From Dehalococcoidia bacterium (GTDB taxonomy: Bacteria; Chloroflexota; Dehalococcoidia; Dehalococcoidales; RBG-16-60-22), in the NCBI GenBank assembly GCA_041300405.1, contig JBGLNK010000001.1:1418545-1482544 (forward strand): DNA of 64,000 bases. The letters run 5' to 3'. A program made the position numbers and the translations under genes. The notes beneath the pieces are model-generated. The model was not told the origin of the DNA, ran no database searches, and saw only the letters and a program-made list of their open reading frames with translations. Below are positions 2,523 to 61,097 of the stretch, in pieces (position 1 is the stretch's first letter; the number at the start of each line of letters is the position of its first letter).

Positions 2523-3431
2523 ATTTACAGGTATATTTTGGAGCATTCGCTGGAATTTCTTTTCCACCCTAAATCCGTAGCTATTGTAGGCGCCTCGGAG
2601 AACCCGACGACCTACGGTTATTCCTTTATGCAGCATATGCTCAGCTACGGGTTCCGCGGCAAGATTTATCCCATTAATCCCAAGTTACAGGAAATAGCCG
2701 GAGTTAAAGCCTACCCCAGTCTCGAAGCCGTCCCCGGCAACATAGATTATGTCATCCATCTTATCGGCGTGAATAATGCGCCGGATATATTACGACAAGC
2801 CGCCGGCAAAGGCGCAAAAGCGGTGCATATTCTGGCCGGACGGGCCGGGGAAACGGGGCGTCCCGAAGGCAAGGAACTTGAAGCGGAAATCTTGAAACAC
2901 GCCCGGGAATACGGCATCAGGGTGCTGGGACCGAATTGCCTGGGGGTTTTCTGCCCCGGGTCAGGATTATCCTTCGGATATGAGTTCCCAAAAGAACCGG
3001 GCAAGGTAGGCGCGCTGATACAAAGCGGCGGCAACTCAACCGACCTGATGCACATATCATCTCTCCGGGGAATCCGCTTCAGTAAAGTCGTCAGCTACGG
3101 CAACGCGCTGGATATTAATGAAACCGACCTTTTACGCTACTTCATCGATGACTCCGAAACAGAAATTATTTTGAGCTACATCGAAGGATTGAGGAGCAGC
3201 AGCCGGGAATACTTCGAACTGGTAAGGCAGGCCACCGCTAAGAAACCAGTCGTCATTCTAAAAGGCGGACGGACGGCAGTTGGCTCAAGACTGGCATTGT
3301 CACATACCGGCTCAATGGCAGGCTCGGTAAATCTCTGGGAAACAGCCATCAGGCAAGCTGGCGCGGTGCCGGCAAAGAACCTGGACCAGATGGTGAACAT
3401 GGCCGTCGCTTTTTATTTTGTGTCGACATAG
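2511..3431 (+). pseudogene. CoA-binding / ADP-forming acyl-CoA synthetase alpha-type protein, 3'-truncated
   Basis: N-terminus HPKSVAIVGASENPTTYGY and LGPNCLG motifs; ORF stops at 306 aa where homologs continue into the ligase/ATP-grasp part; start codon uncertain (TTG 2511 or 2538). Confidence 0.6.
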
Positions 3432-4168
3432 AGCACCTGCCCGGTAATAAAATCAGAGGCGGCAGAAGCGAAGAAAACCGCCGCGCCCAGCAGGTCTTCC
3501 GGCTCCTCGCGGCGCTGTAAGGTCTGTTCGGAGGTTGCCAGTTTGAAAGTCCCGTCGCTGTCCCGCTGTCCCAGGCTGGCTTCGGTGGTGGTATATCCGG
3601 GGGCAATAGCGTTTACATTGATGCCGGAGCCGCCGAGAGCCCGCGCCATGGCATGGGTAAAGGTATAAATAGTTCCCTTGGAGCAGGCATAGGGCAGAAA
3701 GACCTGCGCCGCAGGCACCTGCGGCACGTTGGAGGCGATGTTGATGATCTTGCCCTTGCCGGCTTTTGTCATTAGCGGGGCGATGGCTTTGCAACACAGC
3801 CAGGTGCCGATGACATTCACCTTAAAAATACGTTCCCAGTCAGCTACCGTCCAGGCATCCCAGGGCGTGATATTCAAGCCGTACCAGATAGCGGCATTAT
3901 TTACCAGAATATCTACTTTACCGTATTTTTTTATCACTTCCCCGGCCATCTTGTTCACAGATTTTTCATCAGAGATATCCGTGAGCGAGGCGGCAGCCTC
4001 ACCACCCATGGCTCGTATCTCCTTCACGGTTTCTTCGGCGCGTTCCAGGCTGATATCCGGCAGGAATAATCTGGCTCCCTCTTCGGCATATTTCAGCGCG
4101 AAGGCTTTTCCCAATCCGCGCCCTCCCCCGGTGATAACAGCTACTTTATCCTTTAATGCGGCTGACAT
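3413..4168 (-). CDS. SDR family oxidoreductase (FabG-like); C-terminus probably clipped by a few residues
   Basis: TGGGRGLG cofactor motif, YACSK catalytic motif; ends ...ITGQVLYVDTK where SDRs normally read VDGG plus a few residues. Confidence 0.8.
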   Translation of the reverse strand: MSAALKDKVAVITGGGRGLGKAFALKYAEEGARLFLPDISLERAEETVKEIRAMGGEAAASLTDISDEKSVNKMAGEVIKKYGKVDILVNNAAIWYGLNITPWDAWTVADWERIFKVNVIGTWLCCKAIAPLMTKAGKGKIINIASNVPQVPAAQVFLPYACSKGTIYTFTHAMARALGGSGINVNAIAPGYTTTEASLGQRDSDGTFKLATSEQTLQRREEPEDLLGAAVFFASAASDFITGQVLYVDTK

Positions 4169-4317
4169 GTCTTCCTCCTAAAATAATGGTGCCGGTAAAA
4201 AGTCCGGCTTAGGAAAATCTACACTACCATCTGGGGTATGTCAAGCTAGAGCGCGAATTAAAAATTAAGAGGGGGAAAATCCCCCTCTTAAAAACAGCAG
4301 CCGGAGTAGTATTGGAT

Positions 4318-6858
4318 TTACTTACTCATATTCGGCGCTGCAGTCTGGTACAATGCCTCTTCGATGGATTCCCGGCGCAGCTTGATAAATACTTCCACCA
4401 GTTCCGGGTCAAACTGCGTGCCGGAGCAGCGCTCTAATTCTTTAAGGGCTTCTTCTTCGTTCATCCCGCGCGTTTTATAGTTACGCTCGGATTTCATGGC
4501 ATCATAAGAATCAGCGATGGTCATTATGCGCGCATCCAGCGGAATATCTTTGCCTTTCAGCCCCTTGGGATAGCCCTGTCCGTCATACCTTTCATGATGG
4601 TACAGGATAGCGTCGATGCAGTCCCGCAAACCGACGACGTACTTGATAATATCCAGGGCTAACTGCGGGTGATTTTTAATCGTTTCCCACTCTTCATTAG
4701 TCAGCGGGCCGCGCTTGGTCAGGATGCTGTCGGGCAGATTAAGTTTTCCGATGTCGTGGAGTAAAGACGCCGCCCGTATACGCCGTATCCCGTCTTTTTC
4801 ATAGCCAATGGCTTTGGCAAGTTCGGCGGCATATTTACAAACCAGCTTTGAATGACCGTAAGTATAGTGATCTCTGGCATCAACGGTGGAAGCCAGTGAA
4901 TAAACAATATTATCAACGGCCGCGTTATTATCGATATTGATCATAGTTTCCGGCTGCTCGGATTCGATAATATCGATTTCATTAGCGGCAACAACACGAT
5001 TGCGCCCGGCCTGCTTGGCCGCATATACCGCTTTGTCGGCTGCCTGGATAATCGAGTTCCGGGCAACGCCATCGATACGCCAGCAGGAAACGCCGATGCT
5101 GCAGGTGAGCGTGATGCCTTTATTGCTCATGCAGGTTTCCACCTTGCCGCGAATGCGTTCGCCGACGACCTTGGCGGCTTCACCGGCGGTCTTTCTCAGG
5201 ATAACTGCGAACTCGTCGCCGCCGTACCTCGCACCGATGTCCGTATCCCTGATGGACGCCTTGATAATCTTGCCGACTTCCTTCAATATTTCATCGCCCA
5301 GGGCGTGACCGTAAATATCATTATAGGTCTTGAAGAAATCGAGGTCGATGAAAAGCAAGGAAAAATCATCGCCTGAAACGGCGCAGTTTTCAATCTCCTG
5401 GTTATATTTGTCCTGGAAACTGCGGTGATTATGCAAGCCGGTCAGACCATCGATATCCGCCTGTTCCCGGGCGTTAGCGTAAATTTGCGCATTTTCTATC
5501 GCTACGGCGGATTCATTAGCCAGCATCGTCACCAGGTCAACGTCATCACGGGAGTAGCTGCCCTTGCCCTGTTTCTTGCTTAGAGCCAGAATGGCAACCA
5601 ATCTCTTCTTGGAAATAACGGGGCATAAAATCTCTACCTGGAAGGTACTGAGAGCTTCCCTGTCCTCCACGGTAAGCTGTTTAAAGCGGGGCTCCTTTTC
5701 CATCGCCTCGACGGAAAGCGGTATGCCGCCGCTGATAAGCCATTTAATCATCAGGCTTTCAGATGCTATCATTATCGGGGCGATTTGATCTTCCTCATTG
5801 AGCCGGGCTACAAACTTGGTTGAATAGTAATCATTAAAAGGCAGCAGCATCGCTACCTGCCTGGCGCGGATTGTTTTGGCCAGGGGTTTCATCAATTCGT
5901 TAGCGATTTCTTTGATGCTGATAAAGGTGCTGACCTTGGCTGCAAAGGAAAGCAGCAGCTGGCGGTTGACGTAGCGGCTGCCGTAAAACAATCTGTCCGC
6001 CGCTTTATCCAGCGCCGATTTAATCCAGTTGAAAAGATAGGCGAAAAGTACAACCAGCACAATCGTCGCCGGGATGCCCATTTGAGGAGGCAGCAGGCGC
6101 AGCAGATTGCTTAAAACCAGCAGCAGTGTCAGATAAGCCAGGGTCATACATACCGTCACACCTGTATAGACCACCCATTTTCTCATCAAGACCTGGATAT
6201 CAAGCAGGCGGTATCTCATCAGCGTATAGGCAACGATAATAGCGTTTACAGTATAACCGGCCTGCGCTACCGCGTAAGGAATTTCCTGTACCATATACTT
6301 GAGAAGCCCCGCGACGACCATGACTATGGACCCGGCCAGCAGGTAGGCCGCCCGGTTCTTTTCTTCAGGTTCAGTGGCTTTCTTGAGCAGTTTATAAAGG
6401 TAGAACAATATGGCAACGCCGGCGGCGTCATTACCGATTACCAGGGCGTTGATTGCGTACCCATAATACGCGGAAAGATTATCGTTACCCAGGATGTTCA
6501 AACCCTGTATCATGTAACCCAAAGCTAAAACAACCAGCGTTACACCCAGCCAGGCATAGCCTAACTTCCTGATTTTGCCGGTATTTTTTTGCGCGTAAGA
6601 AGCCAAGAAACATGCGTATGCGACAAGCATCCACGTGGAAAATAGAATTACCGCAAGTTTCCAGAATACCAACTGCTCGTAAGGCAGACTGAAGTTGGTC
6701 AGCAGGCCGGCCAGGCTAATCCCCGCAGCAGCGATTAATAATGTGATGAACAGGTTTTTCAGGGCGACCTTTTTAGAGCAAAGCACCAGTGAAATAAGTA
6801 CGGCATAAATTACAAGGCTGCCGAACTGAAAAATACTCTGGGCGTTGAGCTGGAACAT
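4318..6858 (-). CDS. membrane sensor with GAF-like, GGDEF (diguanylate cyclase) and HD-GYP (c-di-GMP phosphodiesterase) domains
   Basis: About 8 N-terminal hydrophobic helices; RYGGDEF with RDTD I-site 5 aa upstream; LLHDIGK and HHERYDGQGYP motifs. Confidence 0.85.
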   Translation of the reverse strand: MFQLNAQSIFQFGSLVIYAVLISLVLCSKKVALKNLFITLLIAAAGISLAGLLTNFSLPYEQLVFWKLAVILFSTWMLVAYACFLASYAQKNTGKIRKLGYAWLGVTLVVLALGYMIQGLNILGNDNLSAYYGYAINALVIGNDAAGVAILFYLYKLLKKATEPEEKNRAAYLLAGSIVMVVAGLLKYMVQEIPYAVAQAGYTVNAIIVAYTLMRYRLLDIQVLMRKWVVYTGVTVCMTLAYLTLLLVLSNLLRLLPPQMGIPATIVLVVLFAYLFNWIKSALDKAADRLFYGSRYVNRQLLLSFAAKVSTFISIKEIANELMKPLAKTIRARQVAMLLPFNDYYSTKFVARLNEEDQIAPIMIASESLMIKWLISGGIPLSVEAMEKEPRFKQLTVEDREALSTFQVEILCPVISKKRLVAILALSKKQGKGSYSRDDVDLVTMLANESAVAIENAQIYANAREQADIDGLTGLHNHRSFQDKYNQEIENCAVSGDDFSLLFIDLDFFKTYNDIYGHALGDEILKEVGKIIKASIRDTDIGARYGGDEFAVILRKTAGEAAKVVGERIRGKVETCMSNKGITLTCSIGVSCWRIDGVARNSIIQAADKAVYAAKQAGRNRVVAANEIDIIESEQPETMINIDNNAAVDNIVYSLASTVDARDHYTYGHSKLVCKYAAELAKAIGYEKDGIRRIRAASLLHDIGKLNLPDSILTKRGPLTNEEWETIKNHPQLALDIIKYVVGLRDCIDAILYHHERYDGQGYPKGLKGKDIPLDARIMTIADSYDAMKSERNYKTRGMNEEEALKELERCSGTQFDPELVEVFIKLRRESIEEALYQTAAPNMSK

Positions 6859-6887
6859 AACTCTCCTTTACTTTCCCACCGAATCTA

Positions 6888-7865
6888 TCAGCTTTGCCGG
6901 CGCATTATCAGCAGCACTATGCCTATCAGCAGCAGGAAACAGCCGACGCTTATCCACCGGGTTAGCTTGTCATATTGCGCAATCCCGGACCATGAGAATC
7001 CCTGGTCAGGAGATTTTTCTTTCTTAGCCAAGGGCACTATTGTCTTAGTATTATCCTCAGACGCTGTCTTAATATTTGCAGTATCCGCGGAATTTTCCAC
7101 TACCGAGGCCAACGCCTGATTGGATTCGTCAGCCCGCAGGAGCAGACCTTCGATGACGTTATAGTGAAGTTTCAACAGGGTATCCTTGGCCGCGGTTATA
7201 TTACAGGACTCAATGCTCATGAAGACGCTTTTCCCTCCGATGATACCTTCAACGGTTACTTCACCGGTGGCGTCAGTGATGCCGCGTAAAGTCAGGGTAT
7301 ATTCGCCGGCTTCAGGCTCACGTATACGTATCGTCTGGCCTGATTCTCCAATCGCAGAAACGGTGGAGCCGGAAATCTGGTTCACTTTCGCGCCGCTCTT
7401 GAGATACCCGATGCTCGCGCCGTCAGGGTTTTCTACCATGCCGAGTGCATACTGATTGATTTTAATTACCAGTTCATTATCGGCCTGAGGTATTGCTGCG
7501 GGAGCGGATGGTTTTTCATTTGGTTTTACTTCCGTCATCTTTCCGGCGGGCACCTGGACCTCGGTTCCTCCGGCGCTGACACCTACCTTACCTTCAGTGG
7601 TCTGAACCGTGGTTATCCCGGCTTCATCTACTTCCGTAGAAAATAGCGTGCCGTGAACGGTGATATCTGCCGTTCCTGTTTTTATCTGAAAACTGGCTTT
7701 GCCGTCAGCTTTATCAACCTGGTTCCAGGTCTTGCCGGTTTGCTGTTTCAACACTATCGCATAAGGCTGGGCGCCCTGGCTTTCCTGAATCCGGTCGATA
7801 ATCAAATCCGTCCCGGGTTCCAGTTTGGTGGTGGTGCCCCGGGTAAAAGTAATAACCCAAAAGCG
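6888..7865 (-). pseudogene. FecR-domain-like protein with C-terminal membrane anchor, apparently 5'-truncated
   Basis: Frame stays open 60 nt upstream of the TTG at 7805 (..ITFTRGTTTKLEPGTD..) to a stop at 7866-7868; no signal peptide or ATG; C-terminal TM WISVGCFLLLIGIVLLIM. Confidence 0.5.
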
Positions 7866-8440
7866 TCACGGCTCTCGATATCTCTTCAGAGATGCTGAAA
7901 CGTTTGAAAATTAACGCCGAGAAAATCGGCCTGGATAATATCCAATACCTGAACTCCGCGTGGCAGGACGCATTTACCGGCAAGCAGGTAAAGAGCCATG
8001 ATGTCGTGGTCGCTTCCCGCTCGCTGATGTCAGGCGACATGAAAGGCGCCCTATCCCATGTCAACGCCATCGCCGGACAGGCGGCTTACGTTACTTTCCC
8101 GATTGTCCACCTTCCTTTCGACTTCGAAGTCTACAAGGCCATTGGCAGAGGCCGGAAAAAGCATCCGCCTTTTATTTATATATACAATATGCTTTTTCAA
8201 ATGGGCATCCAGCCTAATGTCGAGGTCCTCTACTCCAAAGTAAAAGTCCAGTTCCCGAGCGTTGAAGAAGCCATGAGTGATTTACAGTGGCGCACTGACT
8301 CTTTTAGTCAGACTGAAAAGACTAAACTGCGGGCGTTTCTTGAGAGCAAATTCGCCGGGCAAAAGGATTCGGCGGTTTTTACACACGAAGGAAAGTCACA
8401 ATGGGCGCTTATCTGGTGGCGCAGAGACAGCCAGAAATAA
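7856..8440 (+). pseudogene. class I SAM-dependent methyltransferase, 5'-truncated (motif I missing)
   Basis: In-frame upstream sequence VTALDISSEMLKRL is the post-I region; a stop at 7853-7855 precedes it and no GxGxG motif is present. Confidence 0.65.
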
Positions 8441-8468
8441 TGCGCCGTTTTGTCTAATACCAAGAGAT

Positions 8469-9059
8469 CTAGGGAAATAGAATTCCCTGGATCTGGGTTT
8501 TCAATTCCGCTTTGGCGTTTGGATAAAAATACAGGGCGAACCCTTCTTTAATGATAGCCGGGAAAAGTGTATCGCCTAGCGCCATGGCGTTGTTTTTAAC
8601 CGCTGCCTTATAAGCATCGCTTCCTTTATCATACAAATAGAGTTCAAAAGTGCCGCTGCGCGTGGCATACTTATATCCTTCTTTTGCTCCAACGGCCTCG
8701 GCCGCCATCCAGGTTTTCTGGAAATAAACATTCAGTTCATCCAGGCTGTCATCCAATTTTGTGAACGGATCGTTGCTTACGGTCTTTGAGGGAGTCGTGG
8801 AAGTGATTTTAGTTGTTGTAGTCTTTGTGGTGGTAGTAGCTGCTTTAGTGGTGGTAGCTGTCTTGGTGATGGCAGACGTTTTAGTGGTGGTAGTTGATGA
8901 AGCGGCTGTTTTGGTAACAGCGACGCTGGCAGCCTTAGTTGAAGTATCCGGCGCGTTACTGCAACCAGCCGATATCAGCCCAACCAGAAAAACTGCAATG
9001 ACCGCCGCTCCTGCCCGCCATAGTACCCACTTCATTCTGGAATTCCGCCGATGAGCCAT
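8469..9059 (-). CDS. lipoprotein with Thr-rich linker, unknown function
   Basis: Signal peptide plus lipobox LISAGCS; about 50-aa T/A/K low-complexity linker; start taken at MAHRR (9059), MKWVLW (9035) also possible. Confidence 0.6.
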   Translation of the reverse strand: MAHRRNSRMKWVLWRAGAAVIAVFLVGLISAGCSNAPDTSTKAASVAVTKTAASSTTTTKTSAITKTATTTKAATTTTKTTTTKITSTTPSKTVSNDPFTKLDDSLDELNVYFQKTWMAAEAVGAKEGYKYATRSGTFELYLYDKGSDAYKAAVKNNAMALGDTLFPAIIKEGFALYFYPNAKAELKTQIQGILFP

Positions 9060-9230
9060 ATCCTTGCGCTCCTTTTTACCTGGATATTCGTCTCTCAAAG
9101 AATATCCCTTTTTTTCATGCGATGTCAAAATATTTGAGCCGTTTTACTAACGTCCTGGAGGAAAAGTGGATTAAACGCGGAAGCATAAAAAACCGTATTC
9201 CGGGGACCCTGGTTTTACGCCGGAAAAGTT

Positions 9231-9294
9231 TTAACCCTGCGATTTAAAACGGCCGATTTCTTCAGGGGTGTAGACATCGCGGTTGACGGGGTGG
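9231..9294 (-). pseudogene. remnant of the last ~20 codons of a cupin paralog
   Basis: Translates HPVNRDVYTPEEIGRFKSQG* versus HPVNRDVYTPEEIAKFKSGK* at the end of the adjacent gene 9427-9972. Confidence 0.75.
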
Positions 9295-9426
9295 AGTCTC
9301 GATACACGACCTCACCCTCTGTCCCCCTCTCCCCGATTGTCATACGGGGCAGGCCGTAGACAGAGGGGGCAATAGTTGGTAAGGCTGCCAATGTGACCTC
9401 TAGAACTTTTTCCAGAGGTTCCCTGA
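9295..9426. repeat. hairpin element between the cupin gene and its 3' remnant
   Basis: Nested stem CCCCCTCT(9323-9330)/AGAGGGGG(9362-9369) enclosing CCCCG/CGGGG. Confidence 0.6.
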
Positions 9427-9945
9427 TCATTTCCCGGACTTGAACTTCGCTATCTCTTCCGGCGTATAGACATCACGGTTGACGGGGTGGCCGGTAGTTA
9501 AATCGCCTTTGGAGCGGGAATAGCCCGTCGCCGAGCAGATGTGCATGAACATCACGGGTTTGGTCACCTTGCGGAAGTAGACGGGGCAGTGCATCATTCC
9601 CTTCGGGACGTAGACAATCGAAGTGGTGTTGATAAAGTGCATCTCGTCCTCGTCGCCCAGGGCGATTTCCGCCTCCGCTCCGAAGTCGTAAAAATTCATG
9701 GGGTTGCCGCCGAGGAAGTATAAAAGCTCGTCGTAGTCGTGGGCGTGTTTGGCGCTGATGACGGACGGCTCGGAGATGGTAAAAATCGTCACCTCATTGG
9801 GAAAGCCGGGGAAATTGGAGCCGGGGCAGGGCTGGTCGCCGTTGAGGTGATTCTGGCCGCAAATATGGACCTGTGGGGAAAGCCGTCCCCTGACAATGGG
9901 TTCACGGATAACATATTTGCCGTATTTATAGCTCATGTCCGCCAT
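9427..9945 (-). CDS. cupin-fold protein, unknown function
   Basis: HAHDYDELLYFLGG matches cupin motif 1 (HxHx3Ex6G); start ambiguous (TTG 9972, ATG 9945 or 9936). Confidence 0.6.
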   Translation of the reverse strand: MADMSYKYGKYVIREPIVRGRLSPQVHICGQNHLNGDQPCPGSNFPGFPNEVTIFTISEPSVISAKHAHDYDELLYFLGGNPMNFYDFGAEAEIALGDEDEMHFINTTSIVYVPKGMMHCPVYFRKVTKPVMFMHICSATGYSRSKGDLTTGHPVNRDVYTPEEIAKFKSGK

Positions 9946-10027
9946 TATAACCTGTGAGCCGCGGGCTGTCAAAGCGCCGAGGGCCGGGGTATATTTTCAT
10001 TTGGTATCTCTTACCTATCCCCTTGTT

Positions 10028-10114
10028 CCCCTTTCCAACCAGAGGCATTTCAGCCAAACAGAAATATTTTAGGGTTGGAAAGGGGAGTTTGAAGGAGAGT
10101 CCCGATGAATCGGG
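10028..10114. repeat. intergenic hairpins
   Basis: CCCCTTTCCAACC (10028-10040) pairs with GGTTGGAAAGGGG (10073-10085); CCCGA-TGAA-TCGGG at 10101-10114. Confidence 0.6.
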
Positions 10115-10324
10115 ATCTCCGCAGGCTACTCCGCATTATAAGTACGAATTATTTTATAACGGGCAAGTTTAAAGGAAGTTCCTAAATCAATACACATAAG
10201 CAACCATATACAAACGGGGCTGCGCTGGGGCTGCAAGCCGGCGCACCGGCCGGTATTTGCGCCCGATTCCCGCATGCGCTACAATAAGTTGCAATATGAA
10301 ACTTCCTGTATAAAAGGAGGCGCT

Positions 10325-11698: not shown

Positions 11699-11706
11699 AG
11701 GTTATA

Positions 11707-11731
11707 GGGAGTAGGGTTAAGGGAGTAGGGG
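11707..11731 (+). repeat. G3N4 heptad element (G-quadruplex-type motif), copy 1
   Basis: GGGAGTAGGGTTAAGGGAGTAGGGG; shares the 17-mer GGGTTAAGGGAGTAGGG with 52109-52125. Confidence 0.8.
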
Positions 11732-13261: not shown

Positions 13262-13265
13262 CTTC

Positions 13266-52069: not shown

Positions 52070-52106
52070 TGAATATTATAGAGAAAGCGGCTGGGGAATA
52101 ACAAAC

Positions 52107-52139
52107 GGGGGTTAAGGGAGTAGGGATTAGGGTTGAGGG
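52107..52139 (+). repeat. G3N4 heptad element (G-quadruplex-type motif), copy 2
   Basis: GGGGGTTAAGGGAGTAGGGATTAGGGTTGAGGG: five G-tracts with a strict 7-nt period. Confidence 0.8.
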
Positions 52140-53056
52140 TATAGAGAATAGGAAAAATTGTATTGATTATTCTGTAATAAAAGTGCATATAATAATAGAC
52201 AGAACTCAAGGTGGAGGTGATAACATTGACTACAACCGGTACGAAATACCTTGTTGATAATAAAGGCAAGAAATTTAACCTTTAAAACCTGCGATTCGGA
52301 ATCAGTCACGCCGAACGCGTTTTCCATGACATCAACCTGATGCCCCCGGAACATGATATTCAGCTCCGCCGGGCCAAAAAAATCCACCACCGCCCGCACG
52401 CGACTGGACTGATCAAGGTAACCGCTCGAACCTTCAAAACCGGCACTCGCATCGGCAGTACCGAGCAAAGCGACCAGGTGCCCACCCGCGCTGCCGCCCC
52501 AGACCCCTATTTTATCGGGATCGAGGCCGTAGTCAGAGGCTGTAGCTCTCAGGTACCGCACCGCGCATTTGACGTCTTCAATCATGGCGGGGAATTTATA
52601 TTGCGGGGCCAGCCGGTAATTAACCGAGACAACAAGATAACCTCGTTTTATCATTTCCGGTATTTCATTGGCGCCGGCGCCGGCTGTTTTATCGCCACCC
52701 GTCCAGCCGCCGCCGTGGACATACATGACCACAGGTAAAGCTCCCGCGGCGGTTTGCGGATAATAAATATCCATTTTTAAAGATACATTATCGGCAACAC
52801 CGTAGGTCACATTTTTCTCCGTTGTGCCCAGCTTGACCGGATTCGGGCCGGGCAGTTGAGATGGAGCAGGCGCAGTGGAAGGCAATGCAGTTGGTATAAT
52901 TGAAGTTGGAGGACCTATAGTCTGAGATAATGTAGTGGCAGGTATTGTAGCGGGGATTGGTGACGGCGGGGTTCCAGTTTGGCAAGACATGAAAAACAGG
53001 AGCGCCGCCAGCAGCAAAGCCGGACAGACTATATTAAATTTAATCATCTGGAACAA
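52127..53056 (-). pseudogene. alpha/beta hydrolase (esterase/lipase type), 3'-truncated
   Basis: Signal/TM N-terminus, HGGGW oxyanion motif, GGSAGG nucleophile elbow; after ..DSESQVLK (about 52280) the ORF runs through AT-rich repeat DNA, so the Asp/His part of the triad is absent. Confidence 0.65.
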
Positions 53057-53180
53057 TTCTATGACAAGTATCGATATTATGTAAATAGTACTTTTTATAT
53101 CTGCCTAGCCAAACCGCTTAAAACCATTTATAATCATAAGCGGTTGTATCAAAGATGTCTGCTTGAAAGGAGCACAATAC

Positions 53181-54677
53181 ATGGAAATCAAGGTTACCGC
53201 CGGTGATATCAGCAAAATAGAAACCGGCGCTATCATCACGGGTTATTATGAGAACACCAAGAAGCCGGAAGGCGATACCGCAGCGGTGGATGCCGCCCTC
53301 GATGGGCTGGTTACCCGCCTGATTAAAAAGGGCGATATTAAAGGCAAACTGAATGAAATTACGCTACTGCACTGCGCGGGTAAAGCGGCTGCCACCCGTT
53401 TCGTCATCGTCGGCCTGGGTAAAAAAACCGACATTACAACAGAAAAAATACGATGCGCAGTCGGCGAGGTATGCCGCTACCTGCGTCAAAAAGGCGTCGA
53501 CCGTATTGCCAGCGGCTTACTGGGGGCGGGGGTTAACGGTATCAAGAATGATAAAGCCGTCCAGTCTATGACCGAGGGCGCGATGCTCGGCCTTTATGAT
53601 TTCCGCAAGCATAAAACCAAGAAAGACGATACATATACCGAGGTCAAGGAGTTCGCGATTATCGGAAAAGATAAAAGCGCGATAGACAAAGCCGTCAAAC
53701 AAGCGGAAATAATCGCCAATGCCGTGAACTGGACACGCAACCTCGTTAACGAGCCGTCCAACTTTTTAACTCCGGCCGACCTGGCCGAGGCCGCCCGGAA
53801 AATCGCAACAGACAACGGTCTTAAAATTGAAGTGCTGGAAAAAAAGCAGATGGCTTCATTGGGCATGGGTGGTTTGCTGGGCGTCGCCCAGGGGAGCCAG
53901 CAGCCTCCGCGGTTCATCATCATGACTTATAAAGGCAAGAATACCAAAGACGTTGATATTGCGCTGGTCGGCAAGGGCATCACGTTCGATACCGGCGGCA
54001 TAAGTATCAAACCTTCCACCGACATGCACGAAATGAAGACCGATATGGCCGGAGCGGCTTCCGTCATCGCCGCCATCGGCGCAATCGCCCAACTTAAACC
54101 GGCTATTAACGTCACCGCCATCGCACCGGCTACAGAGAATATGCCCAGCGGCACCGCCCAGAAACCCGGCGATATCATCAAGGCGATGAACGGCAAGACA
54201 ATCGAAGTGCTCAACACAGACGCCGAGGGCCGCCTGATACTGGCCGACGCTTTAAGTTACGCCCGGAAACTGGATGCCAGGGCTATCATCGATATTGCCA
54301 CGCTGACCGGTTCCTGCCGGGCAACCCTGGGCACTTTTGTCACCGGGGCTTTTTCCAACAACCAGCCGCTGGTCGATAAGCTCATTGCCGCGGGCAATGA
54401 AGCAGGCGAGCGCGCCTGGCTGTTTCCGATGTTCGAAGAATACGGAGAGATGATTAAGAGCGAGATCGCGGACATACAGAATGTGGGCGGTAAGTACGCC
54501 GGAGCCATTACCGCGGCCAAGTTCCTCGCCGAGTTCGTCGACGATACCCCCTGGGTGCATATGGACATCGCCGGCACCAGCGAGACCGATAAAGATAAAG
54601 GATACCAGGTTAAAGGCGCTACCGGCAACCCGGTGCGCACACTGGTGAACCTGGTATTGAAGATGGCGGAAGAATAA
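53181..54677 (+). CDS. pepA: leucyl aminopeptidase (M17)
   Basis: AAAGGAG RBS then MEIKV; NTDAEGRL and VGKGITFDTGG motifs. Confidence 0.9.
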   Translation: MEIKVTAGDISKIETGAIITGYYENTKKPEGDTAAVDAALDGLVTRLIKKGDIKGKLNEITLLHCAGKAAATRFVIVGLGKKTDITTEKIRCAVGEVCRYLRQKGVDRIASGLLGAGVNGIKNDKAVQSMTEGAMLGLYDFRKHKTKKDDTYTEVKEFAIIGKDKSAIDKAVKQAEIIANAVNWTRNLVNEPSNFLTPADLAEAARKIATDNGLKIEVLEKKQMASLGMGGLLGVAQGSQQPPRFIIMTYKGKNTKDVDIALVGKGITFDTGGISIKPSTDMHEMKTDMAGAASVIAAIGAIAQLKPAINVTAIAPATENMPSGTAQKPGDIIKAMNGKTIEVLNTDAEGRLILADALSYARKLDARAIIDIATLTGSCRATLGTFVTGAFSNNQPLVDKLIAAGNEAGERAWLFPMFEEYGEMIKSEIADIQNVGGKYAGAITAAKFLAEFVDDTPWVHMDIAGTSETDKDKGYQVKGATGNPVRTLVNLVLKMAEE

Positions 54678-54696
54678 CGGTCCGAACGAGATATAC

Positions 54697-54765
54697 GACG
54701 GCGAAGCAATCGAACAAGTTATAAAACGGATTGCTTCGCTACGCTCGCAATGACTTAACAAATTC
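54697..54765. repeat. hairpin repeat (GCGAAGCAATC...GATTGCTTCGC + CGCTCGCAATGAC)
   Basis: Inverted repeat plus the CTCGCAATGAC tail shared with 50163-50178 and about 101-123. Confidence 0.65.
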
Positions 54766-54784
54766 TGAGGCAAGGAGGCGTTAA

Positions 54785-55441
54785 ATGAAAATCAAATGGC
54801 TGGCCCACTCCGCATTTCTCATCACCGCCGATTCCGGTACACGGATAGTCACTGACCCGTACCAATCCGGCGAGCGGCACAGGCACACAGAGTTCTCCGA
54901 AGCCGCGGACATCGTGACCGTGAGCCACGGCCACAGCGACCATAATCATACCGACCCTATTAAGGGAAACCCGCTGGTGCTGGATAAAGCCGGAGAGGCT
55001 GAAGGCATTAAAGACAAGAACGTTAAAATCAAGGGCGTAGCCGCAGCTCACGATGAGGCCGGGGGCTCTAAACGAGGAGCGAATATTATTTTCTGCCTGG
55101 ATATTGAAGGCGTGAAAATTTGCCACTGCGGCGACCTGGGACACCTGCTCACGGACGAACAGGTAAAGGCCATCGGCCAGGTGGACGTGCTGATGATACC
55201 GGTGGGCGGTTTCTTTACCGTTGAGCCGCCGGAAGCCGATAAAGTCATCGGGCAGCTTAAACCTAAAATCATTTTACCCATGCACTACCTGACGGAAAAA
55301 ATCAGCATCCCTATTAAAAAAGAGGATGAATTTCTCAAGGGGAAGAATAATGTTAAACGCGCCGAAAGCAGTGAAATCGAGGTTAAAGCGGGCAAGCTCC
55401 CGGCCAGCGCGCAGATAATCATGTTGAAATATTCGCTTTAA
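54785..55441 (+). CDS. MBL-fold metal-dependent hydrolase (UPF0173-like)
   Basis: MKIKWLAHSAFLI.., VTVSHGHSDHNH motif. Confidence 0.75.
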   Translation: MKIKWLAHSAFLITADSGTRIVTDPYQSGERHRHTEFSEAADIVTVSHGHSDHNHTDPIKGNPLVLDKAGEAEGIKDKNVKIKGVAAAHDEAGGSKRGANIIFCLDIEGVKICHCGDLGHLLTDEQVKAIGQVDVLMIPVGGFFTVEPPEADKVIGQLKPKIILPMHYLTEKISIPIKKEDEFLKGKNNVKRAESSEIEVKAGKLPASAQIIMLKYSL

Positions 55442-55442
55442 C

Positions 55443-56069
55443 ATGAAGACGTACTGGGAGAGCCGTTATCAGACCGAAGGTAAAATTTGGGGAAATGCGC
55501 CCAGCCGGACGGCCGTACATGCACAGGAATTTTTCCGGCAGGCCGGAGTGAAAAAAATTCTCGTGCCGGGTTCGGGCTACGGGAGAAACACACGGCTATT
55601 TTCCGCCTCCGGTTTGGATATGACCGGCGTTGAAATTTCACCTTCGGCTTGTAATATGGCAAAGGTTTTCGACCCGCAATCCAGTTTCTACAATGCCTCC
55701 GTCCTGGACATGTCTTTCCTCGCTGAAAAATTCGATGCGGTCTACTGTCATAGTGTCCTGCACCTTTTCCGCGAGCAGGATAGAAAAACCCTTATCCGGC
55801 AAAGCGCCGACCGGCTCGCAGTTAACGGCCTTATGTTCTTCTCTGTTATGTCGGAAAAAGACCCCGGTTACGGCAAGGGCGCGGAAACCGAAAAAACCAC
55901 CTTTGAAAGCAAGCCGGGAAGGCCGGTGCATTATTTCACCGCCGCCGACCTGCAAGCTCACTTTAACGCGATGAAAATCCTGGAAACAGGCATCATGGAA
56001 GAACCGGAAAACCACGGCGAGGAAGGGCCGCATGTTCACCCGTGGCGTTATATCTATGTTAGAATATAA
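55443..56069 (+). CDS. class I SAM-dependent methyltransferase
   Basis: ILVPGSGYGRN motif I equivalent, FDAVYCHSVLHLF motif; starts 1 nt after the preceding stop. Confidence 0.7.
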   Translation: MKTYWESRYQTEGKIWGNAPSRTAVHAQEFFRQAGVKKILVPGSGYGRNTRLFSASGLDMTGVEISPSACNMAKVFDPQSSFYNASVLDMSFLAEKFDAVYCHSVLHLFREQDRKTLIRQSADRLAVNGLMFFSVMSEKDPGYGKGAETEKTTFESKPGRPVHYFTAADLQAHFNAMKILETGIMEEPENHGEEGPHVHPWRYIYVRI

Positions 56070-56075
56070 TTGTTC

Positions 56076-56553
56076 ATGATAAATCCTAAAGACATCGAAC
56101 TCATCATCTTCGATATGGACGGGACAATTCTCCCATCTCTTCTGCCTTTCTATGAATCGATAAAGCGGGCTTTTACCAAGCTGGGGTGGCCGGTAACTTT
56201 CAGCCCCGGAGAAATCAACCGGTTCTTCGGTGTTACCACGGCGTCAATCAAAGGCAGCGTATACGAGTTCATCACCCCGCTAAACAGCCCTATTTCCACC
56301 GAAGAAATCCGGGAAAGAGTCCGCGCGGAAAATGATGAAATATTTCATGAAATGGCGCAAACTTACCCCGGCGTGAAAAAAACCCTGAAAATACTGCGCC
56401 AAAGGGGCTACAAGCTGGCACAGTATACCAACGCTTCCATATCTTATTTGAATACTATTATGTCATCTCTGGAAATAAGAGACTACTACGATTACGTCGA
56501 ATGCGTCGAAGACAACCACCTTACAAAAACCGAACTGGCAAAGAAAATCAAAG
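56076..56553 (+). pseudogene. HAD-superfamily hydrolase, 3'-truncated
   Basis: [12 protein letters not shown] (motif I) and LAQYTNAS (motif II); the reading frame then continues as the antisense of the ClpC fragment, producing the artificial 363-aa track ORF. Confidence 0.65.
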
Positions 56554-57472
56554 CTAGGATATTGGCAGCGTCAACAGCGCCTTCAGCGGCGCCGGCGCCC
56601 ACCATGGTGTGGAATTCGTCGATGAATATTACGCAGTTGCCGGCCGTTTTTATTTCATCAACGATTTTCTTTAATCTTTCCTCGAACTCGCCGCGGTACT
56701 TGGTGCCCGCTACCAGCGAGCCCATGTCCAGGGCTATCAGCCGCTTGTCCTGCAGAGTCTCGGGAACGTCACCGGCTACGATGCGGTGGGCCAGCCCTTC
56801 GACGATGGCCGTCTTGCCCACTCCCGGTTCACCGATGAGCGCGGGATTGTTCTTGGTGCGCCGGCTTAAAATCTGGATGACGCGCTCGATTTCCTTGTGC
56901 CGCCCGATGACCGGGTCGAGTTTGCCCTTGCGGGCCTGCTCGGTAAGGTCGGTGCCGAGCTGGTCGAGCGCCGGTGTGCGGCTGGATGAGCGGGTCGCCC
57001 TGGTACGGGGCGAGGAGGATGAGGGGGTGCTTTGCGTTAAAATGTGGGATACTTCAGCCCGGGCTCTCTCCAGCGTAATGCCGAAGCTGTCCAGCACGCT
57101 GGAAGCCACGCCTTCGCCTTCACGGAGGAGGCCGAGCAGCAGGTGTTCCGTGCCGATATAATTATGTCCCATCTGGCGCGCTTCATCGATCGCCAGTTCA
57201 ATGACTTTCTTGGCTCTTGGGGTAAGGCCGGTTTCTCCGGTGCCGGGCTTATCCCCCCGGCCGATGATAAACTCCACCGCGGAACGCACTTTGCTGAGAC
57301 CGATGCCGAGGTTGGTCAGGACGCGCGCCGCTACGCCTTCTTCCTCGCGGACGAGGCCGAGCAAAATATGCTCGGTTCCGATGTAGCTATGGTTAAGGCT
57401 GCGAGCCTCTTCCTGGGCTATTGTGAGGACGCGGCGGGCTCTTTCTGAAAATTTTTCAAATCTGCTTGCCAT
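56492..57472 (-). pseudogene. clpC: ATP-dependent Clp protease ATPase ClpC/ClpB-type, only the first ~305 aa
   Basis: Two Clp_N repeats ([22 protein letters not shown]), Walker [18 protein letters not shown]; homology ends at ..GAVDAANIL (56555), then 20 unrelated codons. Confidence 0.75.
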
Positions 57473-57518
57473 ATATTCCCCCCGGAATACCTGTTTTTAA
57501 ATACACCTCTACTTTAAT

Positions 57519-57546
57519 ATTATACCACCATTGAGAGTTAAGCAAG
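57519..57546 (-). promoter_or_regulatory. extended -10 promoter upstream of the clpC fragment
   Basis: Minus strand TGGTATAAT (57519-57527) with TTGCTT-like -35 at 57540-57545. Confidence 0.45.
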
Positions 57547-57680
57547 CAGGGACTAAAGCGTAGTTGTTGAACCCGCTATTGCGGGACCCCGGTTTTCCGG
57601 GAGCGAGGCAATCTCTGACGTTGTTATTGTATCCGTTGGAGATTGCTTTGCAATAACAGGTGTATTGCTGCTTGCCAAAC
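57541..57680. repeat. nested inverted repeats between 5S rRNA and clpC
   Basis: GCAAGCAG/CTGCTTGC outer stem; TGTTATTG/CAATAACA; GCAATCTC/GAGATTGC; CCCGG-AAAA-CCGGG; CCCGC-AATA-GCGGG. Confidence 0.6.
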
Positions 57681-57733
57681 AATCTCAATAAAAGAAATGT
57701 CTATAATGTATCATCAGGCTAGAAAAAACTAAA

Positions 57734-57856
57734 CCTCCTGGCAGTGGCATATTTTCCACAAAGGGTTCCCCCCTCAGTATCGTCTGCGCTGGAGCGTTTC
57801 ACTTCCGTGTTCGGGATGGGAACGGGTGGTGCCACTCCGCTCTAACCACCAAGAGG
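57734..57856 (-). rRNA. rrf: 5S ribosomal RNA, not adjacent to a 23S gene
   Basis: Minus strand reads CCUCUUGGUGG...CCACCCGUUCCCAUCCCGAACACGGAAGUGAAACGCUCCAGCGC...CCACUGCCAGGAGG with pairing termini; ends +/- 3 nt. Confidence 0.9.
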
Positions 57857-57912
57857 CAAGTCACGATAAAAAAACTATTGATTTGTTAAAGCTCTACCCT
57901 GATACAAAAGAC

Positions 57913-57921
57913 ATTATAACA
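57913..57921 (-). promoter_or_regulatory. extended -10 element upstream of 5S rRNA
   Basis: Minus strand TGTTATAAT, 56 nt upstream of the 5S 5' end. Confidence 0.4.
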
Positions 57922-58226
57922 CAACCTTTGCCATAAAAAAAGCCCCCGGTCAGGTTTATTGTAGGAATATTGGTATAAAATCCGTAGGAATGCCCGGGAA
58001 AGAGCCGCCTTTTACGGGTTATACGCCCTTGACAAGCACAGAGACAAGTGATAGGTTATTGAAGGGCTTTTTCAGAAAAATACCATCCGGGCCGGCGCGC
58101 TTTCTATTTATGCAGCTATAACGCCGGCAATATTATTTGCAGCAAACCGCGGGGCGGATTGATTATCCGGTCCTCCGGTTTAACTAAATGATTTAGTCCT
58201 GTGTAAAATAGTAAGGGGTGAATATA

Positions 58227-58523
58227 ATGAGCATCGAGCTGGTTCACATAGGGTTCGGGAATATTCTGGCTATGAGCAGGGCAATTGCGATAGCTTCACC
58301 GAATTCCGCGCCCACCAAGCGCATTATCCACGAGGGCAGGAATAGCGGCAAGGTAATCGATATGACATCCGGCAGGAGGACCAAGGCGGTTATTTTCACC
58401 GACAGCGGGCATATTATCCTGGCGGCGCTGGCGCCGGAAACAATTTCCAGCCGTCTCCAGTCGGGACGCAGCGGTGCGCCGGTAAAACAGGAACAGGGCG
58501 ACGGTACCGATGAGCTCCAATAA
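58227..58523 (+). CDS. remA: RemA/DUF370 family regulator
   Basis: [32 protein letters not shown]... canonical RemA sequence; AAGGGG RBS. Confidence 0.85.
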
Positions 58524-59136
58524 AACCTCCGGGCTTAATCCACAGGGAAAGCCCTTACTTATCATCCTTTCCGGCCTTTCCGGAGCGGGCAAAGATTCGG
58601 TATTGAACGAACTTAAAAAATGCGCGCGGCCGCCGGAAACCATCATCACGGTCACTACCAGGCCGCGCCGCCATAATGAAAAAGACGGCGTGCATTACAC
58701 CTTTGTTTCACCGGAAAATTTCCAGGCGATGATTGACGCCGGTCAAATGCTGGAATGGGCTGCCGTTTACGGCAACCGCTACGGCGCGCCCCGGGAACCG
58801 GTGAAAAAAGCCCTGGAAAGCGGCAAAGACGTCATTATCAAGGTTGATGTCCAGGGTGCCGCCACTTATAAGAAAATCGTTCCCCAGGCGGTGTTTATCT
58901 TCCTGGCGCCTCCTTCGATAGAAGATTGCGCGCCGCGGCTCAAGGAACGCCGCACGGAAAGCCCGGCGGAACTTGAACTGCGCCTGGAAACCGCCCGGAA
59001 AGAAATGGATATGCTGCCTATCTTCGATTATATAGTAATAAACCGGCATAATGAACTGGACAAAGCCGCAGCCGAAGTCAAGGCGATTATCGCAGCGGAA
59101 AAGTGCCGCGTCAAACCGCGTGAAATAAAACTTTAA
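58510..59136 (+). CDS. gmk: guanylate kinase
   Basis: [11 protein letters not shown]-loop, TTRPRR.E..G..Y.F motif; overlaps remA by 14 nt. Confidence 0.9.
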
Positions 59137-59187
59137 TCCCGTTAACCCGGCGGCAGTGTTCCAGGCTGCAGCCGGGAGTATGCAACT

Positions 59188-59817
59188 TCAGGCATGCTTG
59201 AGGGCTACCCCTTCAAGGACGTTGGCTACATCTTCACAGCGGTCGGTGGCGCTTTCCAGGTGCTCGTAAATTTCACGCCATTTAATAACCGTAGCTATAT
59301 CGGAGTTGTTTTCAAAAAGCTCGCCGATGGCGGCGCGGTAGATGCGGTCGGCCACGTTTTCCAGCCGGTTCATTTCTACACAGTGTTCGAGCATGTTCTT
59401 GAACTCGGATTTCTTGCGCAGGCCGGCCACGGCCTTTTCCATTTCCGCCGCGCCCTGGACGATGACATCGGCCAGTTCTTTAGCCCTTTGCGTGGGACTT
59501 GTTATCTTGTAGATAAACATGGCATCGGCCGAGGCATGGATGAAATCGATGATGTCATCCATCGTGTGCGCCAGGAGGGCGATATCCTCCCGGTCGAAAG
59601 GCGTCACGAAAGTGCGGTGCAGCATGGAAATAACCTGATGGGTGATGGTATCGCCGGCGTGTTCCATCTCGGTTATTTCAGCCACATGGCTGTCGATAAA
59701 TTGCCAGGTATCGAGCATGTCTTTCAGGGATTTGGCTGCTTTGGAAGTGTTTTTAGCGCTTTCTTCAAACAGGTCGAAGAATTTATGCTCCTGGGGCATC
59801 AAATGTAGTTTTACCAT
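59188..59817 (-). CDS. DUF47 family protein (PhoU-like, usually partner of a Pit phosphate transporter)
   Basis: 209 aa; FFDLFEESAKN..., EHAGD, DRCEDVAN blocks of the DUF47/TIGR00153 family; no pit gene adjacent. Confidence 0.75.
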   Translation of the reverse strand: MVKLHLMPQEHKFFDLFEESAKNTSKAAKSLKDMLDTWQFIDSHVAEITEMEHAGDTITHQVISMLHRTFVTPFDREDIALLAHTMDDIIDFIHASADAMFIYKITSPTQRAKELADVIVQGAAEMEKAVAGLRKKSEFKNMLEHCVEMNRLENVADRIYRAAIGELFENNSDIATVIKWREIYEHLESATDRCEDVANVLEGVALKHA

Positions 59818-60193
59818 ATTAATTCTCCTTTAAGAAGGTAAAATGTGCTTCAGAAATCCTGAACCTAAGCGGGGCTAAATGTAACTTTGGTTCTGGAGAG
59901 GGAACTGTAAAAGAAAAAATAAAATTTAGTCTGATGTGACGGAAGGATTGCCCCTGTTTAACGGGCAAAAACATTATCCTTTTTCCATACCGTAATTTTT
60001 ATCATAGGCCAGAATGAGTGTATTAAAAACGGGCGGAAAAGTCAAGGAAACGGGGTCATTCTTTTTACAAATAACCCGCCGGATAAGCGCAGGACGCCCG
60101 CTGGATTGGCGGTTTGCTAGAATAGCGGCGGGATGTGTACTAGAATGTATTTAATTAAGTTTTAGCTGGATAATAACAAAGGAATTCTTAACG

Positions 60194-60727
60194 GTGCAAA
60201 GTACGGCAGATAAAAGCAAAATAAAGGTTTTTACCCCCGGGAAAATAGGCAGCATGGAACTGCGCAACCGCACTATCAGGTCCGGTTGTTTCGAGGGGAT
60301 GTGTGCGTACGCTGCGCCCGGCGAAGCATTAATCGAACATCACAGGAAAGTCGCCGCCGGCGGCATCGGCATGACCACCGTGTCTTATTGCGCCGTATCT
60401 GCGGATGGAGTGGCCTTCGAACATGAGATGTGGATGCGGGAAGAGATTGTCCCCGCTTTGAAACGGCTCACGGATGCCGTGCACCGGGAGGGCGCCGCCG
60501 CCTCGATACAATTGGGGCATTGCGGTTTCTTCGCCAACAGGTTTGCCATCGGAAAGACTCCTATCGGCCCTTCCCGCAAGTTTTGCCTCTTCCGGTACAG
60601 CGTCTGCCGCGCGATGAATGAAGAAGATATCGGGCGGGTGCGGGAGGACTTCGGCAGGGCGGTAAAAATGGCGGTGCAGGCCGGGTTCGACGCCGTGGAA
60701 ATCCATGCCGGGCATGGGTATCTTTAA
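60194..60727 (+). pseudogene. NADH:flavin oxidoreductase (Old Yellow Enzyme family), first ~177 aa only
   Basis: LRNRTIRSGCFEG.., AAASIQLGHCG, GFDAVEIHAGHGYL then stop; homologs continue LSQFLSP.. Confidence 0.75.
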
Positions 60728-60833
60728 AGCCATCCTCGCAGTTCATTTTTACGAGTACCGGATAACCGGGGCCGGCAGCTTCCCTGGCGCGCCTGATGAC
60801 GGAAACAGGAAAGCGCAGGCGGTTTTCCAGCAT
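60725..60833 (-). pseudogene. inverted 109-bp piece of the same type of OYE gene
   Basis: Minus strand translates LENRLRFPVSVIRRAREAAGPGYPVLVKMNCEDGFK, the OYE segment lying ~19 aa after HGYL. Confidence 0.7.
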
Positions 60834-61097
60834 GCAACCCTCGCAGATGCCCAGGCGGCTGGCGCCGTCACCTGGAACTACGGGCTGTTCATCAATACTA
60901 TCATCGCTTTTTTCATCATTGCTTTAGCTATTTTCATGATCGTAAAAGCGGTGAATAAAGCCCGGAAAGCCATGGACGCCAAAAAGGCAAAAGAGGCGAT
61001 TGCCGCCGCTCCTGTTACCAAAGACTGCCCATTCTGCGCCACGGCTATCCCGGTAAAAGCCACCCGCTGCCCGCACTGCACTTCTGAAATCAAGTAA
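60834..61097 (+). pseudogene. mscL: large-conductance mechanosensitive channel, 3' two-thirds only
   Basis: ATLADAQAAGAVTWNYGLFINTIIAFFIIALAIFMIVKAVNK.. matches MscL from the periplasmic loop/TM2 onward; no TM1 and no start. Confidence 0.7.

Follow-up and report, generated by a model that had tools for sequence, protein, structure and literature searches.

The window is a stretch of 64,000 nucleotides from a contig assigned to a Dehalococcoidia bacterium, and it contains no Ns. Abrupt discontinuities divide it into blocks, here lettered A to O, whose ends cut genes mid-domain. In order, the features are:

1..3421, block A, cut by the window start: tRNA-Glu, URO-D-like gene, GNAT gene and acetate-CoA ligase alpha fragment
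3416..3422, joint of A and B, tail-to-tail: acetate-CoA ligase fragment (+) against SDR (-)
3422..7857, block B, about 4436-4438 bp: SDR, GAF-GGDEF-HD protein and FecR-domain protein without its N-terminus
7858..12237, block C, about 4380 bp: methyltransferase without its N-terminus (from profile position ~22) and intact MmgE/PrpD
12238..16636, block D, about 4399 bp: cupin-like gene (3′ end cut at ~12237), AAA_18 protein, KARI (ilvC), SIMPL and ArsR
16637..21032, block E, 4396 bp: ilvD, GYD, acetyl-CoA hydrolase and the final 52 codons of rpiB
21033..25396, block F, 4364 bp: MmgE/PrpD, MaoC-like dehydratase and metallo-beta-lactamase
25397..29797, block G, 4401 bp: IS21 (istA/istB, roughly 25530-28105) and IS5/IS4-type DDE transposase
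29798..34180, block H, 4383 bp: PIN/MazE, acyl-CoA dehydrogenase, ETF and PlsY
34181..38538, block I, 4358 bp: ribosomal protein S16, ROK kinase and MFS transporter
38539..42891, block J, 4353 bp: N-terminal stub of an FAD-oxidoreductase (-) cut at 38538-41, genes of unknown function and an IS3-type element (HTH_Tnp_1 and rve)
42892..43660 (+), piece J′, 769 bp: a 499-aa FAD-linked oxidase, present up to codon 244 and cut at 43658-43660
43661..47975, block K, 4315 bp: glycerate-kinase-like gene (DUF4147/MOFRL), LarA and aldo/keto reductase without its N-terminus
47976..52280, block L, about 4305 bp: Lrp/AsnC without its HTH domain, aminotransferase, dioxygenase and MFS transporter
52281..56554, block M, about 4274 bp: 3′-cut esterase (-), M17 aminopeptidase, MBL, methyltransferase and 3′-cut HAD hydrolase
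56555..60724, main part of block N: ClpB N-terminal part (-), orphan 5S rRNA, RemA, guanylate kinase, PhoU-like gene and codons 1-177 of an Old Yellow Enzyme (OYE) gene
60725..60832 (-), tip of block N: reverse-complement copy of 108-109 nt, OYE codons ~198-233
60833..64000, block O, cut by the window end: MscL without its first ~56 residues, pentapeptide-repeat protein, SnoaL-like protein and formate-THF ligase (runs off the window)

Gene integrity follows this division. In the roughly 30 interior genes tested, Pfam coverage is full length; truncated profiles occur at block ends only, and no pseudogenes or degraded genes were found in block interiors. All 12 breakpoints claimed by the first-pass annotation are real discontinuities, at or within a few nucleotides of where it had placed them. 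At the first of these (3416-3422), the acetate-CoA ligase alpha gene lacks its 3′ end (TIGR02717 positions 1-287 of 447) and the opposing SDR lacks its last 6 residues, with LYVD followed by TK and a stop where the relatives in its 90%-identity cluster (255 aa) end in LYVDGGTVML. The joint placed at 7853-7866 lies precisely at 7857/7858, and that at 16633-16637 is narrowed to 16635-16637. Near 12240, the reading frame of the cupin-like ORF ceases to make sense after DAEILILI, and the ORF as called forms a singleton cluster. The FAD oxidoreductase ending at 38535-38541 is represented by its N-terminal ~100 residues only, and the FAD-linked oxidase at ~43660 is interrupted at residue 244 of 499.

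The remaining breakpoints on that list are equally sharp. At 34178-34186, a contig of another NCBI assembly (L009) terminates at 34180. At 47971-47982, similarity to a 32-kb ENA contig (L013) ends at 47973; the aldo/keto reductase, which is 337 aa elsewhere, has lost its N-terminus here, and the Lrp/AsnC gene its HTH domain. The esterase at ~52280 covers profile positions 1-153 of 215. At 56550-56557, ClpB covers positions 1-294 of 853 and the HAD hydrolase 3-140 of 226, and an NCBI contig (L011) begins at 56556. The 109-bp piece bounded by 60722-60727 and 60831-60836 consists of OYE residues ~198-233 in reverse complement, from the same gene that stops at 60724, and MscL beyond it starts at profile position 57 of 127. 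Four further discontinuities, absent from the earlier list, lie at 21032/3, where RpiB is interrupted, probably at 25396/7, at 29797/8 and at 42891/2.

No listed breakpoint falls at the end of an IS element, and the junctions inspected at base level share no motif, as had been claimed. Self-comparison of the window found no long repeats at block ends and no target-site duplications at the listed joints. A placement of the F/G boundary at the IS21 terminus was rejected, with the IS21 inverted repeats lying at ~25530-25632 and 28008-28102, not at 25397. The claim that base composition also changes in blocks is weakly borne out: GC content ranges from 0.43 to 0.54 between blocks, but variation within blocks is just as large.

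The spacing of the breakpoints is regular. Twelve of the 13 complete blocks are 4274-4438 bp long (CV 0.012), and the CV of all intervals is 0.049, falling to 0.012 without the one outlier block. When the same number of breakpoints was placed at random 200,000 times, the interval CV was never below 0.28. Block length also declines along the window (Spearman -0.85, p = 4e-4). The order is non-monotonic (4438, 4380, 4399, 4396, 4364, 4401, 4383, 4358 and so on), and J and J′ together (5122 bp) fall out of rank. A strict descending length sort is excluded by C (4380 bp) preceding D (4399 bp), F (4364 bp) preceding G (4401 bp) and the 5122 bp of J with J′; a fixed block length of 4398 bp is excluded by the same unequal lengths. 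Since the lengths are only approximately ordered, simply sorting the sequences as they now stand does not explain everything.

The joints were compared with contigs from NCBI (GCA_041300435.1), Logan, JGI and ENA, all from the same Dehalococcoidales-like population. Some of these assemblies may go back to the same reads, so they are not fully independent. Contigs that cross joints are 98-100% identical to the window, except for L013 (95.6%) and homologues L015-L017 (78-88% nucleotide identity), and three window proteins differ by one residue from their sister-MAG counterparts. The window from 1 to 25000 has no match in the E. coli genome, and an exact 56-mer of block E has none in genome or metagenome contig collections that do not include the source and the sister MAG. 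No literature was found on accessions JBFYTV, GCA_041300435, SRR28346262 or ERZ25039461.

Seven joints (7857, 16636, 21032, 29797, 43660, 47975 and 60832) are contradicted by contigs of other assemblies, in which the cut gene is intact and is followed by sequence not present in the window. NCBI contig L012 matches window 7857..3885 over its positions 59-4031 at 99.97% identity, and beyond 7857 it runs for 58 nt of different sequence that continues the FecR gene. L001 (4996 bp) matches the window over its positions 483-4880 only, passing both 16636 and 21032 into other sequence, and carries an intact rpiB. L009 matches window 34180..29798 over its positions 1-4383 and continues past 29798 into squalene-cyclase-like, LytB and acyltransferase genes; there the Logan contig L010 sides with L009 against the window. 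In L015-L017, the oxidase extends 255 codons past 43660. The ENA contig is collinear with window 44092-47973 and goes on to an intact 337-aa AKR, a Zn-ADH and an FGGY kinase, all missing from the window, as are the native neighbours of block K over 16 kb. At 60832, L011 passes the joint while still in reverse-complement OYE sequence. Neither the missing ends of L001 nor the missing halves of the cut genes occur elsewhere in the window.

Other contigs end where the window joins. Six contig ends lie within 0-30 nt of a junction, at 16636, 21035, 25396, 34180, 56525 and 56556, as would be expected of places where assembly naturally breaks off. NCBI contig L002 (4203 bp) matches window 16636..12434 throughout, apart from 2 SNPs, so that its end coincides with the joint at 16636, and L004 equals window 52586..56525. 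NCBI contig L007 (4362 bp) coincides with window 21035..25396, and the Logan contig L008 likewise ends at 25396; the right-hand joint of block F was placed at 25396/7 because of these two ends and the block periodicity. For seven seams (3419, 12237, 25396, 34180, 38538, 52280 and 56554), no crossing contig was found, and the evidence there consists of gene truncation, periodicity or nearby contig ends.

Two discontinuities differ from the rest and would be internal to contigs rather than seams. At 42891/2, where the IS3-type element ends, 215 nt are missing between two native neighbours: both flanks recur on JGI contig L014, unchanged in order and orientation but 215 nt further apart, and the last 23 nt of NCBI contig L003 match this missing stretch. 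The junction is thus excluded as a seam and represents either a deletion in the strain or a scaffold gap that was closed up. Apart from the lost 215 nt, J′ lies beside J just as it natively does, which length sorting alone would not produce and which implies that scaffolding or extension took place at some step.

The OYE junction at 60724/5 is tail-to-tail at a CTTT/AAAG palindrome with 4 nt of microhomology. Its partner is the same gene, read backwards from codon ~233 through codon ~198 and natively situated no more than ~170 nt downstream. L011, which differs from the window by 10 SNPs over 4276 nt, carries the same junction and extends 8 nt further into the reverse-complement sequence (encoding GGS), and the same 177-aa OYE product is also on record from Logan. 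The junction thus recurs in two or three assemblies; it and the adjacency of J and J′ are the only joints that do. An intact 405-aa OYE allele is present in another metagenome. Most likely, 60724/5 reflects one chimeric fold-back read that lengthened a contig tip; a library fold-back read suffices because the folded segment (108-115 nt) is shorter than one short read and lies at the tip. Unlikely by comparison is a genuine inversion within the gene, ~170 bp long (codons ~179-234), that segregates among these Dehalococcoidales-like bacteria.

The joins are present in the deposited record, since ORFs that read across them are recorded on a single NCBI contig of 2,310,894 bp: the ClpB N-terminal ORF (326 aa), MscL (130 aa), the cupin (114 aa) and the FAD stub (127 aa). 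Such seam-spanning ORFs form singleton clusters. Taken with the spacing and the crossing contigs, this makes it very probable that the breakpoints are the seams of about fifteen separate metagenome contigs of ~4.3 kb, set end to end without gaps in one 2.3-Mb public record. If so, they are a data artefact and not the trace of a scrambled genome. The short contigs of a highly fragmented Dehalococcoidales-like metagenome bin would have been written one after another as a pseudo-molecule, in arbitrary orientation, in roughly descending length and without N spacers; length-sorted concatenation is our inference as to cause. Every seam would then abut two unrelated contig ends, so that genes running off those ends appear cut mid-domain, and gene callers reading over the seams would produce chimeric ORFs found nowhere else.

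The first-pass annotation had offered two readings, an artefactual chimera or a scrambled, decaying genome. The former holds in substance, but the routes it named, multiple-displacement amplification (MDA) and mixed-strain co-assembly, are not supported; the latter would not account for the observed pattern either. That a single, truly assembled contig became chimeric through MDA template switching, library artefacts or strain mixing is improbable. The OYE junction is a textbook fold-back, although this fold-back geometry was found at 60724/5 and not at the other joints; a strain mixture does exist, given differences of 0-1.6% between the window and sister contigs; and about half of the joins are of the inversion type by the first-pass count, which is also what random contig orientation would give. 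Chimeras from MDA template switching are known to arise at irregular intervals, would be inverted for the most part and link segments near each other in the genome. The joints in the window are instead spaced at ~4.3-4.4 kb with a downward trend in block length, coincide with contig ends of other assemblies and join unrelated partners, with L013 showing 10 kb of native surroundings that differ. No assembler would extend over 64 kb through about 14 joins of such regularity.

Still less probable, to the point of being scarcely credible, is a genome that is truly rearranged and decaying, with biological breakpoints. The three IS elements in the window (IS21, IS5/IS4-type and IS3-type), the gap at 42891/2 abutting the IS3 end and the recurrence of the OYE inversion joint would all suit it. 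Against it, contigs of the same population cross seven junctions with the cut genes intact, interior genes are full length with none degraded, and the listed joints carry no IS element, repeat or target-site duplication. To our knowledge, there is no biological precedent for equal spacing of 4.3-4.4 kb. Paired inversions, in which one tail-to-tail and one head-to-head joint share the halves of the same two genes, were rejected, with the families at 3419/7857 and at 56554/47975 failing to match. About as implausible as the decaying genome is a patchwork that was deliberate or introduced downstream of the public record, by block shuffling or by concatenation when the window was cut. Shuffling would likewise yield near-constant block size and random orientation, but the joint-reading ORFs had already been catalogued from the 2,310,894-bp NCBI contig, the block ends are natural contig ends elsewhere, which random cutting would not be expected to produce, and the window lacks the other halves of the cut genes. 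Local shuffling of a single contiguous stretch was rejected too, since neither those halves nor the L001 ends occur in the window.

Concatenation of separate contigs implies no new biology, and the value of the result is as a quality flag on the record. The 2.31-Mb public record, which resembles one contig, appears to consist of about 500 short contigs joined without gap characters, and if this is true, quality rankings will treat it as a nearly complete genome in a single contig. It also seeds protein databases with chimeric singleton ORFs, among them, from this window, the 326-aa ClpB stub with its foreign tail, the 130-aa MscL, the 127-aa FAD stub and the 114-aa cupin. Analyses of synteny, operons, GC skew or rearrangement on this record are invalid, and the earlier warning that operon-level inference across the breakpoints is unsafe is upheld. 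Other findings in the window should be disregarded wherever they extend across any of the 14 seams.

Among known systems, the window most resembles pseudo-molecules made by concatenating draft or MAG contigs. It shares with them unrelated abutting ends, genes cut exactly at seams, random orientation, the lack of a junction motif, intact interiors and perhaps block sizes in contig-list order. In concatenated records, runs of N usually mark the seams and the sequence is labelled a scaffold, whereas the window has no Ns, which makes its seams invisible and lets gene callers read over them; its size order is also only approximate, with J and J′ out of rank. MDA/phi29 template-switch chimeras are matched by the single joint at 60724/5, with its inverted join and microhomology, while the other ~14 joints are evenly spaced, link unrelated loci and are inverted in about half of cases by the first-pass count. 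IS-driven rearrangement and pseudogenisation likewise bring truncated genes and IS elements together in one region, but in the window no listed breakpoint lies at an IS end, repeats and target duplications are lacking, and the interior genes are intact.

The first-pass annotation listed abrupt breakpoints within conserved genes. The frames flanking every listed site were translated and scored against Pfam and NCBIfam, and profile coverage shows a real mid-gene cut at each.

Genes truncated at joints, with profile positions covered
acetate-CoA ligase alpha: 1-287 of 447
ClpB: 1-294 of 853
MscL: 57-112 of 127
HAD hydrolase: 3-140 of 226
esterase: 1-153 of 215
Old Yellow Enzyme (OYE): 1-178 of 342
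aldo/keto reductase (AKR): match begins at 39
methyltransferase: match begins at ~22
Lrp/AsnC: lacks the HTH domain
FecR domain: begins at residue 5 of its frame
FAD oxidoreductase: stub of about 100 residues

Homologues were checked for the same natural end, and close relatives proved longer. Within the SDR's 90%-identity cluster the protein has 255 aa, and the window copy stops 6 residues short; the FAD-linked oxidase is 499 aa in relatives and is cut here after residue 244. Elsewhere, AKR and OYE are 337 and 405 aa, respectively. The homologues thus do not share the end points of the window copies, and the truncations are genuine.

L001, a 4996-bp contig of the sister assembly (NCBI GCA_041300435.1, contig JBFYTV010000489.1), encodes an exact copy of the window's IlvD. 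L001 matches the window only over its positions 483-4880 (100% identity; window 21032..16635), and both of its ends run on into sequence absent from the window; rpiB, cut in the window, is complete there. This alignment confirms the annotated joint at 16633-16637 and reveals another, unlisted, at 21032/3. The comparison was repeated for other blocks, the segments between joints.

Contigs aligned to the window
16636..12434: NCBI L002 (4203 bp), contig end exactly on the joint
21035..25396: NCBI L007 (4362 bp); Logan contig L008 likewise ends at 25396
34180..29798: NCBI L009 (6941 bp), continuing into squalene-cyclase-like, LytB, and acyltransferase genes; beyond 29798, Logan contig L010 agrees with L009, not with the window
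7857..3885: NCBI L012, followed by 58 nt more of FecR
52586..56525: NCBI L004
56556..60831: sister contig L011 (4284 bp)
44092-47973: ENA 32-kb contig L013, collinear at 95.6% identity; past 47973 it carries intact AKR, Zn-ADH, and FGGY kinase, all three absent from the window

Metagenome contigs with the FAD-linked oxidase part from the window at 43657-8, where the gene runs for 255 further codons. Other assemblies cross seven joints with intact genes and break at six places at or beside joints. In L013 (ERZ25039461 contig_21455), several genes are split into two adjoining calls (PfkB, 89+231 aa; FGGY, 123+398 aa; adh_short, 58+179 aa), a pattern typical of frameshift errors in unpolished long-read assembly.

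The joints are evenly spaced.

Block lengths, left to right
B-E: 4438, 4380, 4399, 4396 bp
F-I: 4364, 4401, 4383, 4358 bp
J+J': 5122 bp (4353 + 769)
K-N: 4315, 4305, 4274, 4278 bp

All but one of the 13 blocks measure 4274-4438 bp (CV 0.012 for these twelve), with length declining from left to right (Spearman -0.85, p = 4e-4). In 200,000 trials with breakpoints placed at random, the median CV was 0.91 and no trial gave a value below 0.28. This periodicity foretold joints near 25.4, 29.8, and 42.9 kb ahead of their detection. Domain coverage is full-length in all interior genes scored, among them IlvD, KARI (the ilvC product), two MmgE/PrpD proteins, acyl-CoA dehydrogenase, ROK, two MFS transporters, LarA, a glycerate-kinase-like protein, an M17 peptidase, and an aminotransferase. 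Self-comparison of the window found no repeats at block ends.

Position 42891/2 was rejected as a seam, since its flanks are native neighbours. It is a deletion or closed scaffold gap: 215 nt located between an IS3-type element and the oxidase gene are missing from the window and present in JGI contig L014 (1229-1443) and NCBI contig L003. Part of these 215 nt looks like the 3' end of a tRNA (GGCAGTTCAAATCCGCCTGCCACC); its position directly beside the IS3-type element suggests an old integration site.

The window has a GC content of ~50%, no Ns in its whole sequence, and a single tRNA-Glu gene. Searching the E. coli genome with window 1-25000 gave no match. Gene content is Dehalococcoidales-like (PlsY, ClpB, and IlvCD, with IspH in a sister contig), and the SDR cluster includes members named 'Dehalococcoidales bacterium'.

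Other features of the window
57736-57853 (-): the only 5S rRNA gene, an orphan (Rfam, 89.8 bits) flanked by the clpB stub and remA; the window has neither 23S nor 16S
25397-29797: block G, almost entirely mobile elements, namely an IS21 (istA 514 aa, istB 250 aa; inverted repeats ~25530-25632 and 28008-28102) and an adjoining IS5/IS4-type DDE transposase
10274-11698 and 21192-22493: MmgE/PrpD-family paralogues on different blocks
9427-9972 and 12240-12464: cupin-like paralogues on different blocks, neither with a Pfam hit
13817-13921 and 38150-38252: dispersed ~105-nt intergenic repeat, with a partial inverted copy at 19271-19306

The unlinked position of the 5S rRNA gene is real rather than a seam effect, because the gene lies inside block N and is collinear in L011. 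Block G looks like a repeat-only contig. The two long copies of the dispersed repeat are 83% identical. The repeat holds a conserved strong hairpin, UCUCCC(U/C)UU...AAGGGAGA, and is found immediately 3' of both ilvC and the acetyl-CoA hydrolase gene. It matches no Rfam family at gathering score and may be a terminator-bearing repeat or small mobile element.

At 60724/5, OYE codons 1-177 meet, tail-to-tail, the gene's own codons ~198-233 in reverse complement. The joint (window 60716-60733) is centred on an 8-nt palindrome, CTTTAAAG (CTTT|AAAG); in the native gene, both partner sites carry similar 10-mers (GGGTATCTTT / GGATGGCTTT). Such microhomology is expected for fold-back template switching. 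L011, 10 SNPs from the window, shares the joint and reaches 8 nt further; Logan, too, has a record of the identical 177-aa product. At 108-115 nt, the inverted tail is less than a short read in length, and it lies at a contig tip. Both points speak for a fold-back chimeric read, with a small real inversion the less likely cause.

Exact look-ups located the window's own ORFs on one NCBI contig of 2,310,894 bp. Seam-crossing ORFs occur on it (a 326-aa ClpB stub with a foreign tail, a 130-aa MscL ORF, a 114-aa cupin ORF, and a 127-aa FAD stub), so the seams belong to the deposited record and were not made by cutting the window. Seam-spanning products form singleton clusters.

The even, slowly shrinking blocks, their arbitrary orientation, and the unrelated partners at each joint, together with the intact interiors, the seven joints crossed elsewhere, and the six nearby breaks, argue that the window very probably consists of a highly fragmented bin's contigs joined without spacers. 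The contigs would have been listed roughly by size and written end to end. Because the ordering by size is only approximate and J+J' breaks the ranking, the sorted contigs appears to have been edited afterwards, for example by polishing, extension, or the removal of scaffold gaps. The earlier suspicion of a chimeric record thus stands in kind, but not in mechanism: an amplification or library artefact (MDA) or mixed-strain co-assembly is quite unlikely; MDA chimerism explains neither the regular spacing nor the unrelated partners. Its alternative, a truly scrambled and decaying genome, is scarcely credible and is rejected, because near-identical contigs hold intact alleles and block interiors are intact. 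Biologically the finding matters little; in practice, concatenation as the preferred reading serves as a warning on the source record and on any other finding in the window that spans a seam.
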